A model generated the notes under the pieces. It saw nothing but the letters and a program-made list of their open reading frames with translations, made no database searches and was not told the origin of the DNA. Of a stretch of 32,447 nucleotides of DNA, positions 2,789-18,581 are shown piece by piece. This DNA is from a virus. Lineage: Duplodnaviria; Heunggongvirae; Uroviricota; Caudoviricetes. The DNA lies in IMG/VR virus record IMGVR_UViG_2585427783_000005. One strand, written 5' to 3'. Both the position numbers and the translations under genes were made by a program. Each line of letters opens with the position of its first letter. Positions within the stretch are counted from its first letter, which is position 1.

Positions 2789-3649
2789 TTACACGTGTTT
2801 TTCCAATGTGAAAACTACAGCCCCGGCAGGAGTAATGTCTGTAATGTTGCATTCAAACTCAGCAGACTTATTTGACAACCTGACTTTTCCACCGGGCAAG
2901 CGAATTACATCAAAAACATCAAGAGCGCCGTCGATATCAATTAACCAGCGACCATTACTTATATTCGAAGCAGAACAGTCGACAAGCCAAGAGGCAGCTA
3001 CACCGTCAACAAAAATCAATTCCCCTGAGTTAGAAGGAATCATTGAGGGGTCAGGATGCCACGTTCCTGCATCCTTAAGCTCACCAGATTCAAGACGAGA
3101 TTTTTTAATAGAAAAACCAGATGTGACATCTTCCCTGTTAGCTCGCATTTGCCCCTTGCCTGTTGCTAACCATTCCAGTGACGTATCGGTATCAAGAGCG
3201 CATGTAACAACAACATCACCAGGGAAAAAATCTCGCCTTACCCATGTGCTAATTGTGCCAGAGGAAATGCCGAGCAAATCACCGAGCTCCTTTTGCATGG
3301 TAAAGCCATACGCATCAAGAATCCTACGCAAAACGGTTTTACCACCATTCGTCATAATCTCGTCATAAAGCTCTTTGCCTTTTAACTTGCAACTGGCTCG
3401 CTCGTGATTTGCATTTGCAAGTTCTCCATTTACAAGCCAATTGATATCAGCTCCCGTGTCAAGACAACACCTAACTATGACATTGCCAGGTATTGCATCA
3501 CGCTGAACCCAGCCGCTAACGCTGTGTTTAGCGATACCTAGCAGGTCAGCCAAATCCTTTTGCATCTTGACCCCATAGGCTGACATTAAGCGTTCCAATA
3601 CGCCGTTCGTTGCACTAACACGCCACTGAACATCAAGCTCAGAACTCAT
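2789..3649 (-). CDS. cI: CI-type immunity repressor (186-like) with tandemly duplicated N-terminal HTH domain
   Basis: 286 aa. Two homologous modules (VLERLMSAYGVKMQKDLADLLGIAKHSVSGWVQRDAIPGNVIVRCCLDTGADINWLVNGE / VLRRILDAYGFTMQKELGDLLGISSGTISTWVRRDFFPGDVVVTCALDTDTSLEWLATGK), then a C-terminal domain resembling the 186 CI oligomerisation domain. Divergent from the early operon. Confidence 0.85.
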   Translation of the reverse strand: MSSELDVQWRVSATNGVLERLMSAYGVKMQKDLADLLGIAKHSVSGWVQRDAIPGNVIVRCCLDTGADINWLVNGELANANHERASCKLKGKELYDEIMTNGGKTVLRRILDAYGFTMQKELGDLLGISSGTISTWVRRDFFPGDVVVTCALDTDTSLEWLATGKGQMRANREDVTSGFSIKKSRLESGELKDAGTWHPDPSMIPSNSGELIFVDGVAASWLVDCSASNISNGRWLIDIDGALDVFDVIRLPGGKVRLSNKSAEFECNITDITPAGAVVFTLEKHV

Positions 3650-3678
3650 AAAAACCCCTACAGATAATTTTATGGGTG

Positions 3679-3707
3679 TTTACAGAAAACTTTTTACGAT
3701 CTATAGT
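3679..3707 (+). promoter_or_regulatory. Candidate sigma70 early (lytic, pR-like) promoter in the cI/apl switch region
   Basis: TTTACA (3679-3684), 17-nt spacer, TATAGT (3702-3707); ~60 nt upstream of the AGGAG RBS and ATG at 3771. Confidence 0.5.
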
Positions 3708-3770
3708 GGCATTCATCGACCAAGATGCACACCACTGCACTACATTTCAAACAACAGGAGATAATGCGAT

Positions 3771-4142
3771 ATGTCAGATGCAAAATCAATCTCGACGCAC
3801 GACTCGCAAAACTCACAAAATCAAACTGTGCTGCTAGATCCAACACAGTTTGATGCCATCGTTACCGCCATGCTGCCAGCTCTACAGACAATGATTCGCT
3901 CCGCTATGTCAGACACGATGACTGTGAAAGACTTCGCCGCTACTCGCGGTGTTAGCGAGCGTCTGGTCTGGCAATGGCTCGATGAGGGAGTCCTTCTCAA
4001 AGCTCCGACCAAAGACTTTTCCAACAAAGAAGAAGCTGCTAAACGAAGCCGAACCCTCGTAAACGTAAAAGCATGGCGCGATAAGCTGACTCAACAAGCG
4101 ATTGATTGTCGCTACATCGACCAGCGCACCGCTCTTAACTGA
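3771..4142 (+). CDS. Putative Cox/Apl-like DNA-binding regulator/excisionase (first gene of early operon)
   Basis: ATG at 3771 with AGGAG RBS; HTH-like segment MTVKDFAATRGVSERLVWQWLDEGVL; position equivalent to 186 apl / P2 cox. Longer than Apl/Cox (123 aa), so the call is positional. Confidence 0.45.
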   Translation: MSDAKSISTHDSQNSQNQTVLLDPTQFDAIVTAMLPALQTMIRSAMSDTMTVKDFAATRGVSERLVWQWLDEGVLLKAPTKDFSNKEEAAKRSRTLVNVKAWRDKLTQQAIDCRYIDQRTALN

Positions 4143-4174
4143 ATTTGATTATGCAAGTTAGAGGGAATTTAACC

Positions 4175-4684
4175 ATGTTTGATTTTCAGGTTTCCAAACA
4201 TCCCCACTATGACGAAGCATGCCGCATTTTCGCACAGCGTCACAATATGGCGAAGCTGGCCGAGCGTGCAGGTATGAACGTTCAAACGTTACGTAACAAG
4301 CTCAACCCGGAACAGCCTCACCAGTTCACGCCGTCTGAATTGTGGCTGCTGACTGACCTGACCGAAGACTCAACCCTCATTGATGGTTTTTTAGCGCAGA
4401 TTCACTGCCTACCATGCGTGCCGGTTAATGAGTTGGCTAAAGACAAATTGCAGTCTTATGTCATGCGCGCAATGCGTGAACTCGGCGAACTGGCGAGCGG
4501 CGCGGTATCTGATGAACGTCTGACCATTGCCCGTAAGCACAACATGATTGAAAGCGTTAACTCCGGCATTCGCATGTTGTCATTGTCGGCTCTGGCTCTG
4601 CATGCACGTCTGCAGACTAATCCAGCTATGTCGAGCGTGGTCGATACCATGAGCGGTATTGGCGCATCGTTTGGTCTGATTTGA
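4175..4684 (+). CDS. cII: CII-like lysogeny-establishment regulator (phage 186 CII family)
   Basis: 169 aa starting MFDFQVSKHPHYDEACRIF, ATG at 4175 with GAGGG RBS; matches my recollection of 186 CII in size and position after apl. Track ORF starts at upstream TTG 4145. Confidence 0.8.
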   Translation: MFDFQVSKHPHYDEACRIFAQRHNMAKLAERAGMNVQTLRNKLNPEQPHQFTPSELWLLTDLTEDSTLIDGFLAQIHCLPCVPVNELAKDKLQSYVMRAMRELGELASGAVSDERLTIARKHNMIESVNSGIRMLSLSALALHARLQTNPAMSSVVDTMSGIGASFGLI

Positions 4685-8008: not shown

Positions 8009-8028
8009 TACTGTATAAATATACAGTA
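8009..8028 (+). promoter_or_regulatory. LexA (SOS) box overlapping a promoter upstream of the small-ORF/DinI-like operon
   Basis: TACTGTATAAATATACAGTA: CTGT-N8-ACAG, near-perfect palindrome matching the E. coli LexA consensus; TTGCCA -35-like hexamer at 7995-8000. Confidence 0.8.
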
Positions 8029-8047
8029 ACCCTGTGGGAGGGATTTC

Positions 8048-8230
8048 ATGGTTGGCGAACATTTCAGCCGAACGCAGCAAAAGTGGGCTTGTGTGCAATT
8101 TATTGCCGAGGTATCTCTGATTGCAAACTGCAAGCCATCAGACTTAAAGCTCGCGCTCACTCTCATTGCAGACCTAGCAAACAGCGAGAATAACGAAACC
8201 GAAGATGATAATTTTTATAAGGCTGATTAG
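8048..8230 (+). CDS. Small hypothetical protein, first gene of the putative LexA-controlled operon
   Basis: ATG 8048 with GGGAGGG RBS; 60 aa; acidic C-terminus. Confidence 0.55.
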   Translation: MVGEHFSRTQQKWACVQFIAEVSLIANCKPSDLKLALTLIADLANSENNETEDDNFYKAD

Positions 8231-8233
8231 ATT

Positions 8234-8467
8234 ATGAGAATCAATATCACGTTGGATAAAGAGCAAAAAATTAGTCAGGCAACATTGGATGCACTTGAGG
8301 CTGAACTGTACCGCAATCTTCAACCTATTTACCCAAAGACTGCTATCCGAATTCGCAAGGGCTCCGCTAATGGCGTTGAACTAAGCGGTTTGAAACTGGA
8401 CGAAGATAAAAAACGAGTAATGGAAATCATGCAGCAGGTATGGGAGGACGATAGCTGGCTGCATTAA
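8234..8467 (+). CDS. DinI/Tum-family protein (candidate SOS-induced antirepressor or RecA modulator)
   Basis: 77 aa; MRINITLDKEQKISQATLDALEAELYRNLQPIYP ... EIMQQVWEDDSWLH resembles DinI in length and conserved N- and C-terminal segments; downstream of the LexA box. Confidence 0.75.
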   Translation: MRINITLDKEQKISQATLDALEAELYRNLQPIYPKTAIRIRKGSANGVELSGLKLDEDKKRVMEIMQQVWEDDSWLH

Positions 8468-18171: not shown

Positions 18172-18581
18172 AAATCCTGATTACACTTCTGGTGCTGACT
18201 GTGCTCGGGATGTTGTGGTTGCGCCATGAGAACGGCAATTTATCCCGCTCCTTTGAGACAGCAAACCGCGTCGCGAGCGAACAAAAGACGACGATTGGCA
18301 TGCTGAAAAATCAGCTCAGTGTTGCCGGTCAGCTTGCCAGACGTAATGAATCTGCGCAGGTGGCACTGCGTGAACAGCTCGCAAAGGCCAGCGAGGAAGC
18401 CAGCCGCCGCGAGCAATCAATAACGAGGTTACTTAATGAAAATGAAGCCTTTCGCCGCTGGTATAACGCTGCTTTACCTGATGTTGTGCGTCGGTTGCAC
18501 ACCCGACCCGCCTGCGCCAGCGCCGGTGATTGTGGTCAGCGGATGCCCGAGGGTGAGCCTTTGCCCGATGCCGGGCAGTGA
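18168..18581 (+). CDS. lysB: Inner-membrane spanin (Rz-like)
   Basis: ATG 18168 overlapping the K stop; N-terminal TM helix MKILITLLVLTVLGMLWL then a charged coiled-coil-like region. Confidence 0.75.
   Translation: MKILITLLVLTVLGMLWLRHENGNLSRSFETANRVASEQKTTIGMLKNQLSVAGQLARRNESAQVALREQLAKASEEASRREQSITRLLNENEAFRRWYNAALPDVVRRLHTRPACASAGDCGQRMPEGEPLPDAGQ

Follow-up and report, generated by a model that had tools for sequence, protein, structure and literature searches.

Two DNA-binding modules in the CI repressor of a PSP3-like prophage and their candidate operators

Introduction

The switch of phage 186 is a main model for gene control by looping and wrapping of DNA around an oligomeric repressor, and an old question in this system is how one helix-turn-helix (HTH) reads two classes of operator. 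The C-type repressor of P2 is a protein of ~99 amino acids (aa) with a different fold that binds direct repeats. Convergent promoters, the distal operators FL and FR, and operators spaced two helical turns apart have been described for 186 (186 record; PMC3675496), and P2 C and the 186-type CI repressors are not alignable (PMC3448106). Here we analyse the immunity repressor gene cI and the adjoining switch region of a PSP3-like prophage, contained in a stretch of 32,447 nucleotides (nt) assigned to the Caudoviricetes (IMG/VR record IMGVR_UViG_2585427783_000005; hereafter, the window). Its CI carries a duplicated DNA-binding domain, and the two copies, HTH1 and HTH2, probably differ in specificity: HTH1 would set immunity at the early lytic promoter pR, and HTH2 would read a conserved palindrome at dispersed sites.

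The locus resembles that of 186 in its repressor, which has the same Pfam families, an HTH2 and C-terminal domain collinear with 186 CI, and the same C-terminal fold; in the gene order int-cI / apl-cII-fil; in a strong pR facing a weak convergent pL (the latter predicted here); in candidate distal operators within cI and at the apl/cII junction, 736 base pairs (bp) apart centre to centre against 678 bp in 186; in repeats two helical turns apart at pR; and in a Tum homologue preceded by a LexA box. It differs in that 186 CI has 192 aa and one HTH, whereas two HTHs are present here and the two site classes are assigned, by comparison, to different domains. In addition, the apl/cox analogue is unrelated in sequence to its 186 counterpart, and the Tum homologue is split into two open reading frames (ORFs). 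With PSP3 there is no substantive difference, the CI (97.9% identity, 286 aa) and the genomic context being essentially the same.

The gene is already known as PSP3 CI in databases, where both domains are visible to Pfam. PSP3 CI has been published as having 'a longer C-terminal domain' than 186 CI, the duplicated HTH being unmentioned (PMC3448106), and we found no description of an HTH duplication in PSP3 CI, in Phage_CI_repr proteins or in tandem-HTH phage repressors in the accessible literature, which omits most subscription journals. As far as we could find, the split of operator recognition between the two HTHs, the palindrome regulon (FL, FR and the promoter of the late activator gene pag) and the recurrence of the duplication seem to be undescribed.

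Results and discussion

CI carries two homologous DNA-binding modules

The repressor gene and its parts are as follows:

2789 to 3649, minus strand: cI, encoding the 286-aa immunity repressor in the order HTH1, linker, HTH2, linker, C-terminal domain (ORF with ATG start, Pfam matches, homology to PSP3 CI)
3422 to 3604, minus strand: HTH module 1, aa 16-76, variable and putatively immunity-specific, recognition helix AKHSVSGWVQR (hidden Markov model (HMM) and AlphaFold2 helices)
3344 to 3421, minus strand: inter-module linker, aa 77-102, a disordered stretch encoding the FL-like palindrome and then a conserved helix (AlphaFold2)
3155 to 3343, minus strand: HTH module 2, aa 103-165, nearly invariant, recognition helix SSGTISTWVRR, collinear with the HTH of 186 CI (alignment)
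2801 to 3112, minus strand: C-terminal oligomerisation domain, aa 180-283, with the fold of the 186 CI C-terminal domain (PF16452, Foldseek)

The initial annotation had described a 286-aa repressor, against 192 aa in 186, with two homologous HTH modules before the oligomerisation domain, and had pointed out that this bears on the wiring of the switch. The lengths and the modules are confirmed, and we judge the latter point to be correct. Comparison of the N-terminal 91 aa with the next 92 aa by BLASTP gave 37 identities over 74 positions (50%, E = 4e-25). Pfam detects PF07022 (Phage_CI_repr) in two separately significant stretches (E = 1.3e-52) and PF16452 (Phage_CI_C) at aa 180-277 (E = 1e-20), and with an HMM of the module the copies fall at aa 16-76 and 105-165. 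An AlphaFold2 model of the monomer, built from a 36-sequence alignment, comprises three separately folded domains: five helices in module 1 (17-74), five in module 2 (103-163), preceded by an extra helix (92-101), and a beta-rich C-terminal domain (181-283) that matches that of 186 CI (2fkd_A) with a TM score of 0.89 and a root-mean-square deviation of 1.7 Å (Foldseek). The linkers at 78-87 and 171-177 have a predicted local distance difference test (pLDDT) score below 50, and no fixed HTH1-HTH2 packing or inter-domain arrangement is predicted (predicted TM score, pTM, 0.39). Residues G91, K92 and Y95 of the inter-module linker are invariant in an alignment of two-domain CI proteins.

A frameshift introduced by sequencing, or the recent joining of two neighbouring repressor genes, could yield a functionally meaningless protein of this kind. 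We consider the probability of such an artefact negligible, because the two-domain architecture is conserved in phages and genomes. The cI gene is one uninterrupted frame, and the same protein occurs in PSP3 (AAN08403, orf29, 286 aa; 97.9% identity), vB_EcoM-613R3 (99.7%) and SEN1 (97.2%). Length and architecture are equal in the cultured phages PSP3, SEN1, Midge and SI22 and in hundreds of genomes, and both modules are under clear purifying selection. DNA covering cI and the switch is found at 99% identity or more in 37 complete Escherichia coli genomes, with any match in 68 of 5426. In a collection of 5.8 billion proteins, nearly all of the best 120 clusters have 277-290 aa and the same two Pfam families, and their hosts include Klebsiella, Enterobacter, Salmonella, Citrobacter, Escherichia, Pantoea, Cronobacter and others. 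The duplication is therefore real. With a Phage_CI_repr HTH (present twice) and a 186-fold C-terminal domain, the protein is a variant within the 186-type CI family that differs by having two HTH domains per chain instead of one; its domain content is not that of a P2 C-type repressor.

The N-terminal module is the addition

Residues 9-183 of the 186 CI structure 2FJR align to residues 105-280 of the window's CI (E = 6e-22). In a HMMER search of 1.84 billion representatives, where the whole family is small (432 matches at E ≤ 0.001), ordinary members of ~190 aa align to residues ~100-285. Because module 2 and the C-terminal domain are collinear with 186 CI and with the ~190-aa members, they correspond on these alignments to the canonical repressor, and module 1 with its linker to an N-terminal addition. 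About 13 of the best 150 representatives (50% clustering) have two PF07022 domains along with the C-terminal domain in a chain of 285-358 aa. The architecture, called unusual in the initial annotation, recurs across Enterobacterales and in at least three lineages of the family and, judging from these sequences, is not rare but the norm for a large PSP3-type clade.

The two modules are conserved to different degrees. Across 36 aligned two-domain proteins, with overall identities of 58-90%, module 2 hardly changes (VLRRILDAYGFTMQKELGDLLGISSGTISTWVRRDFFPGDVVVTCALDTGVSLEWLATGKG) and module 1 is variable, chiefly in its recognition helix. Among 68 genome loci, more than 30 different sequences of module-1 helix 3 were counted; one locus (L077) was left out since it appears frameshifted. 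Mean pairwise identity in the genome set is 54% for HTH1, 78% for HTH2 and 42% for the C-terminal domain, although these loci were retrieved by peptide patterns inside module 2, which inflates the conservation of HTH2 in that set and to this extent weakens the case for our reading. In a set unbiased to either module, made of representatives less than 50% identical overall to the window's CI and found with the full-length sequence, identity to the corresponding window module is 64-77% for HTH2 against 34-56% for HTH1.

A conserved palindrome is the likely target of HTH2

The target of HTH2 is likely an 18-bp palindrome, AACTTGCA-WW-TGCAAGTT (e.g. AACTTGCAAATGCAAGTT), as indicated by comparison with single-domain relatives. 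Six loci from Ewingella, Chimaeribacter and Rahnella (L078-L083) belong to similar prophages and encode a CI of 196 aa with a single module-2-type HTH and the recognition helix SSGTISTW[VI]RR. In L078, L079 and L083, a palindrome of 17-18 bp fills the spacer between the -35 and -10 elements of pR:

Single-domain pR: TTGACG-ACTTGCAAAATCAAGTT-TAAATT
Single-domain pR: TTGACA-GCTTGCAAAGTCAAGAT-TAGAGT
Single-domain pR: TTGACA-ACTCGCAAATGCAAGCT-TAGATT

In L080-L082 the equivalent palindrome lies ~50 nt upstream of a conserved MQLDELEGG / MRLDELEGG start, and the pR-spacer reading covers the other three loci. The HTH of the single-HTH relatives (L078-L083, and P0133 from the representative search) is 79% identical to module 2, and these proteins share its recognition helix, the C-terminal domain and the palindrome, which in them is the operator of pR. 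This arrangement seems to be ancestral, and because relatives with the same recognition helix carry the palindrome at pR, the specificity of HTH2 would be the ancestral one. The initial annotation had allowed that the second module might have acquired a new specificity; the polarity appears to be the reverse, with module 2 ancestral and module 1 diversified.

A weight matrix built solely from the single-domain operators was scanned on 48 non-redundant two-domain loci of 5.8 kb each and gave 88 matches, against 6.4 in shuffled sequence. A match is present at cI +226/+234 in 42 of the 48 loci and at -340 to -530, the junction of the cox analogue and cII, in 27; a few matches lie near pR or pL and only two outside the regulatory zone. 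In the whole window, the FL-like and FR-like sites are the top two by a wide margin. The sites of this type are (scores from the position weight matrix, PWM):

3406 to 3423: FL-like operator, candidate HTH2 site, AACTTGCAAATGCAAATC in minus-strand reading, cI codons 76-81 (PWM 19.7)
4142 to 4159: FR-like operator, candidate HTH2 site, AATTTGATTATGCAAGTT, after the stop codon of the cox/apl analogue and before the cII start (PWM 18.1)
3810 to 3827: weaker HTH2-type site, ~25 bp upstream of the pL -35 (PWM 11.6)
3140 to 3157: weak HTH2-type match in the linker after module 2, a position homologous to that of FL after module 1 (PWM 12.2)
3384 to 3391: extra candidate half-site AACTTGCA, forming an inverted repeat 24 bp from the FL palindrome

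The two strongest sites are located where a 186-type switch would have its distal operators, FL in cI and FR at the apl/cII junction; in 186, FL lies inside cI in the linker after the HTH, and the FL-like site mirrors this position. The site at 3810-3827 occupies the same position in PSP3, Midge and SI22 (scores 11.6-12.2). The match at 3140-3157 exceeds the threshold only in the window, L004 and PSP3 and may be due to chance. The half-site at 3384-3391 is inverted relative to the FL half-site TGCAAGTT at 3416-3423 and is present in the PSP3 group and L009. Further candidates were rejected: 18376-18393 (score 12.7), at an unrelated location and taken as chance; matches at 534-557, in AT-rich cargo DNA between attL and int and likewise treated as chance; and the pL -35 (3775-3792), which is similar by eye (TTGATTTTGCA) and has an independent matrix score of only 3.5. 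Minor variants of the HTH2 helix (STATIST, SSGTMST) showed no clear pattern of co-variation with variants of the palindrome.

The FL-like palindrome is encoded by CI residues 76-81 (E-L-A-N-A-N), in the linker predicted to be disordered by AlphaFold2. In 48 non-redundant genes, L77 is encoded by CTT in 22 of 22 cases, A78 by GCA in 37 of 37, N79 by AAT in 36 of 36 and A80 by GCA in 26 of 31. The mean frequency of the commonest codon is 0.50 over the 133 cI columns that pass the amino-acid conservation filter, and A78, N79 and A80 rank 1st, 2nd and 6th among these; L77 is unranked, being Leu in 46% of the genes and below the filter. Because codons 77-80 are near-invariant at the synonymous level, the amino-acid motif of the linker is probably a by-product of the DNA element.

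Some Lonsdalea loci (L046, L047, L050 and L055) have a two-domain cI with the linker GEFIDGPEMLHQD, lacking both the LANAN motif and the FL palindrome, and are natural FL-less variants. Their cI has no ATG before module 1 and its frame is open through module 1, presumably with an alternative start codon. In the window, a 14-nt inverted repeat (ATCAAACTGTGCTG / CAACACAGTTTGAT, 93% complementary, 7-nt gap) at 3820-3854, within the orf30 coding region, abuts the weak HTH2-type site and is kept in close relatives.

The conservation of HTH2 at 78%, against 42% for the C-terminal domain, could also be explained by a protein-protein interface. HTH2 might then be mainly a structural spacer or a docking surface, for instance for a Tum-like antirepressor (a Tum homologue is present, and 186 Tum is annotated as inhibiting DNA binding by CI), and the palindromes would be bound by the cox analogue, CII, a host protein or HTH1. 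We regard this explanation as quite improbable, given that the sole HTH of the relatives, with the same recognition helix, must bind DNA and that the palindrome is their pR operator. Moreover, the palindromes occupy the positions of the known 186 CI sites FL and FR, and types of the cox analogue differ among loci while the palindrome is unchanged.

The palindrome recurs at the late-activator promoter

In PSP3, the palindrome is also found between the D gene and pag, as AACTTGCAAATGCAAACTT, overlapping a promoter TTGCAA-16-TATTAT. A copy scoring 20.8-22.4 also precedes ogr/pag in Midge and SI22, again over the -35 TTGCAA. The CI proteins of these heteroimmune phages have module 1 sequences that differ from that of PSP3. 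Because the window ends at the D stop codon, we located the site in PSP3 and in an E. coli genome with the prophage, where AACTTGCAAATGCAATTT lies 14-31 bp beyond the position of the window's right end; over the two segments compared, the final 648 nt and 982 nt of cI and the switch, this prophage and the window are 100% identical. By its position over the pag -35, the palindrome would supply the late-activator operator of a 186-type switch. The 186 CI is said to repress directly the promoter of the late activator gene B, and the pag palindrome would be, by analogy, the counterpart of the CI site there.

HTH1 and the -35/spacer region of pR vary together

The elements of the pR-pL region are:

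3679 to 3707, plus strand: pR, the early lytic promoter, TTTACA-17-TATAGT (10/12; the only sigma-70 match in 3300-4400)
3761 to 3789, minus strand: predicted pL, the cI promoter, TTGATT-17-CATTAT, convergent with pR (8/12, below the scan threshold)
3659 to 3698: tentative candidate HTH1 operators, repeats TACAGATAATTTT (3659) and TACAGAAAACTTT (3681), 22 bp apart and covering the pR -35 and spacer

A pR of the form TTTACA-17-TAnAnT is present in nearly all two-domain loci (about 45 of 48). The predicted pL, placed by position and conservation only, matches the 186 pL in its position relative to the apl start. Where the single-domain relatives carry the module-2 palindrome in pR, the two-domain loci carry symmetric elements that are specific to the type of module-1 recognition helix:

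PANNISSWIQR: pR element ATCGCATTTGCGAT
APNNISSWQQR: pR element GTCGCATTTTGCGAT
PKSTVSNWVSR: pR element TCCCGCAAAATGCGGGA / CCCGCAAAATGCGGG
PRSTVSNWVSR: pR element TGCCGCATAATGCGGCA / GCCGCATAATGCGGC
HGNNVSSWLAR and AKSNVAGWLQR: an inverted repeat of wider span with its centre on the -35

The initial annotation had suggested looking for repeated half-sites at 3650-3770. Repeats are weakly visible there, but the immunity type of the window has no convincing palindrome. The repeats at 3659 and 3681 are conserved within the AKHSVSGWVQR group, and their spacing fits the two-turn phasing of the 186 pR operators.

Comparison of the window with two close relatives (L006 and L007) gave a nucleotide identity of 85-100% at 3690-4209 (pR -10, pL and orf30), 17-72% at 3370-3689 (pR -35 with upstream sequence, module 1 and linker) and 60-93% at 2810-3369 (module 2 and C-terminal domain). 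Within 3370-3689, 7 of 8 windows of 40 nt in L007 and 6 of 8 in L006 have an identity of 0.65 or less. As read from these alignments, this is the mosaic profile typical of an immunity cassette. In 37 loci, the operator zone, taken as the 17-nt spacer and the 14 nt upstream of the -35, was compared with the CI domains. Its similarity correlates with HTH1 identity (r 0.72), also when the C-terminal domain is controlled for (partial r 0.67, Mantel p ≤ 0.0005), against a partial r of 0.20 for the C-terminal domain and 0.27 for HTH2. In a control region downstream of the -10, similarity follows the C-terminal domain and HTH2. This suggests that module 1 and the -35/spacer region of pR vary together as one heteroimmune cassette.

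Many HTH1-type half-sites (TCGCA, CCGCA) are only one or two bases away from the HTH2 half-site TTGCA, as would be expected if both modules bound both operator classes with relaxed specificity and the duplication simply doubled the DNA contacts per oligomer. Such a gain in avidity alone appears unlikely in view of the strong asymmetry in conservation between the modules, the co-variation of the operator zone with HTH1 but with neither HTH2 nor the C-terminal domain, and the invariance of the FL, FR and pag sites across heteroimmune phages.

In the Serratia loci L028-L045, an HTH2-type palindrome ACTTGTAAATGCAAAT overlaps the pR -35 and adjoins the HTH1-type palindrome GTCGCATTTTGCGAT, with centres ~13.5 bp apart; there, both heads may act at one promoter.

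The initial annotation had also proposed that one chain could bind two half-sites. Both HTH modules of a monomer would then do the job of a 186 CI dimer, an arrangement that the tandem modules joined by a flexible linker of ~28 aa might permit and that the ~13-bp spacing of HTH2-type and HTH1-type sites at the Serratia pR might suit. Nevertheless, the recognition helices of the two modules differ in the PSP3 clade, and both the conserved 18-bp operator and many type-specific operators are self-complementary. Because the operators are individually symmetric, pairs of identical modules from two chains are the more natural occupants. Operators that pair a conserved half with a variable one were not seen, and the AlphaFold2 model, with its low pTM, predicts no defined packing of HTH1 on HTH2. 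A single-chain pseudo-dimer is thus not favoured, and has in our view little probability as the general mode of binding; it is plausible for the lineage of Klebsiella phage 4LV2017, where nearly identical recognition helices would suit it.

Three observations concern the same region. A GATC (Dam) site at 3698-3701, directly upstream of the pR -10 (CGATCTATAGT), is present in most of the 48 loci whatever their immunity type, and Dam methylation might modulate pR or repressor binding. Between the start points of pR and pL, at 3726-3741, lie TGCAC direct repeats exactly 10 bp apart (GATGCACACCACTGCAC). A motif ATGCAnnnCAnTGCA is conserved across several heteroimmune groups with an MSDAKSI-type orf30, and other orf30 types carry a conserved block of different sequence, CACACCACATGTAACACCATAGAACA; the repeats and these orf30-type-specific blocks are candidate binding sites of the Apl/Cox analogue.

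A model with two heads of different specificity

We propose that a 186-type repressor gained a second, N-terminal copy of its HTH and that the copies now read different DNA. HTH2 would have kept the ancestral specificity for the palindrome, at FL, at FR, weakly upstream of pL and at the ogr/pag -35. HTH1 would be the immunity determinant, binding type-specific operators over the pR -35 and spacer (~3659-3698) and exchanged together with them as a cassette. By analogy with 186, the C-terminal domains would join dimers into a higher oligomer in which HTH1 pairs hold pR and HTH2 pairs hold the distant sites, producing a DNA loop. With the loop in place, pR would be silenced, the convergent pL freed from interference and the late activator kept off, and a Tum-like antirepressor controlled by LexA would reverse repression and induce the prophage. 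The specificity of HTH2 would be hard to change because it serves at least three to four dispersed sites, and HTH1 and its operators could co-evolve or move as a unit because HTH1 serves one cluster beside its own coding sequence.

Several points weigh against this model. Every assignment of a protein module to a site is by association. At the pR of the window's own AKHSVSGWVQR type, AT-rich repeats 21-22 bp apart stand in place of a convincing palindrome. The HTH2-type palindrome at the Serratia pR indicates that the division of labour is not absolute. A single 186 CI HTH reportedly recognises two operator classes, the pR type and the FL/FR type, so that relaxed specificity is possible. A 14-mer wheel of CI, made of seven dimers, is assumed by analogy. 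Finally, if a resident HTH2 represses pag of heteroimmune relatives, heteroimmunity would be leaky, which is either a real effect or a sign that the model is incomplete.

More than one DNA-reading unit per chain is also found in engineered single-chain 434 repressors, in MarA, Rob and AraC, in POU and paired domains, and in two-domain repressors of mycobacteriophages (PMC9283540); in these proteins both units lie on one contiguous asymmetric site, whereas here two separate symmetric site classes would be engaged through oligomerisation.

If the model is true, immunity diversifies through HTH1 and its adjacent operators alone, with the long-range architecture intact and HTH2 locked in. The CI of one immunity type would bind FL and FR in prophages of another type and repress their late activator, so that P2/186-like phages that are nominally heteroimmune would share a hidden layer of cross-immunity. 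Such prophages are common in E. coli, Klebsiella, Salmonella, Enterobacter and plant-associated Enterobacterales. PSP3-type CI would also look like a natural experiment in which two tasks are placed on separate, independently mutable domains, and synthetic circuits could make good use of its two heads, of which HTH1 would be orthogonal and swappable. To the full picture of a natural two-specificity repressor, with a fast-evolving immunity head and a frozen housekeeping head, hidden cross-immunity and a duplication that arose at least three independent times, we give about an even chance.

Tandem HTH repressors in other lineages

A matrix of module identities delineates at least three lineages with a two-domain CI, in which the module pairs are closer within a lineage than to other lineages. 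In the PSP3 type, the two modules are 30-51% identical, and the second clusters with single-domain proteins such as P0133 (79%). They are 64% identical in the type of Klebsiella phage 4LV2017 (P0137), with at most 46% to any other module, and 52-69% identical in the P0184/P0196/P0199 type. The latter two lineages share with PSP3-type CI the two PF07022 domains and PF16452. They appear independently duplicated; their modules are 52-69% identical mutually and at most 46% to PSP3-type modules. Because module pairs are most alike within each lineage, either duplication was repeated or copies were homogenised within lineages. The recognition helices of these other lineages are undiverged (in the 4LV2017 type nearly alike, SQSTMANRYARD and SKSTLANRYLRD), so that they may work differently; a repeat search for operators of the 4LV2017-type repressor was uninformative.

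Two further proteins from the representative search depart from this scheme. P0237 (323 aa) has three Phage_CI_repr-like stretches and no CI C-terminal domain, and P0214 (525 aa) consists of six or seven Xre-type HTH repeats in a row. As judged from these repeats, HTH multiplication exceeds two copies in related proteins.

Neighbouring genes

The neighbourhood of cI is as in PSP3: the integrase gene (int, 1379-2419), a DUF2511 gene and cI, followed by the divergent orf30, cII and fil. With int and cI divergent from orf30 and cII, this is the gene order of a 186-type switch. The other genes of the switch are:

3771 to 4142, plus strand: orf30, a 123-aa Apl/Cox analogue and first gene of the lytic operon (phrog_3554)
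4175 to 4684, plus strand: cII (Phage_CP76), lysogeny establishment activator (Pfam E = 4e-46; start as in PSP3 gp31)
8011 to 8467, plus strand: LexA box CTGTATAAATATACAG (8011-8026), then Tum homologue ORFs at 8048-8230 and 8234-8467 (tblastn)

The orf30 protein belongs to phrog_3554, whose function is not assigned, with a weak Cox-like match at aa 48-110 (E = 8e-5) and no Pfam match, and the PSP3 protein has been called a 'singleton' (PMC3448106). At least four unrelated N-terminal types of orf30 adjoin conserved module-2-type repressors. The LexA box is perfect, and the Tum homologue is 37% identical to 186 Tum (tblastn, E = 3e-27). An in-frame stop at 8228-8230 splits it in two, the second ORF being DinI-like by eye, whereas 186 Tum is a single protein of 146 aa with internal starts.

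The small DUF2511 gene (2442-2741) lies between int and cI on the lysogenic strand, has a signal-peptide-like start (MKCKLFLALLLTLSFGASA) and is kept in PSP3 (gp28), Midge and SI22; it is probably a moron expressed in the lysogen. The att core AGTTAAGACGCT (~79-90) is followed by an AT-rich stretch of ~1.1 kb that PSP3 lacks (93-1378). Within it, an ORF of 281 aa (417-1262) has a weak HEPN-like PADLOC match (RTasHEPN, E = 1e-4) and may be an anti-phage cargo gene at an att-int hotspot.

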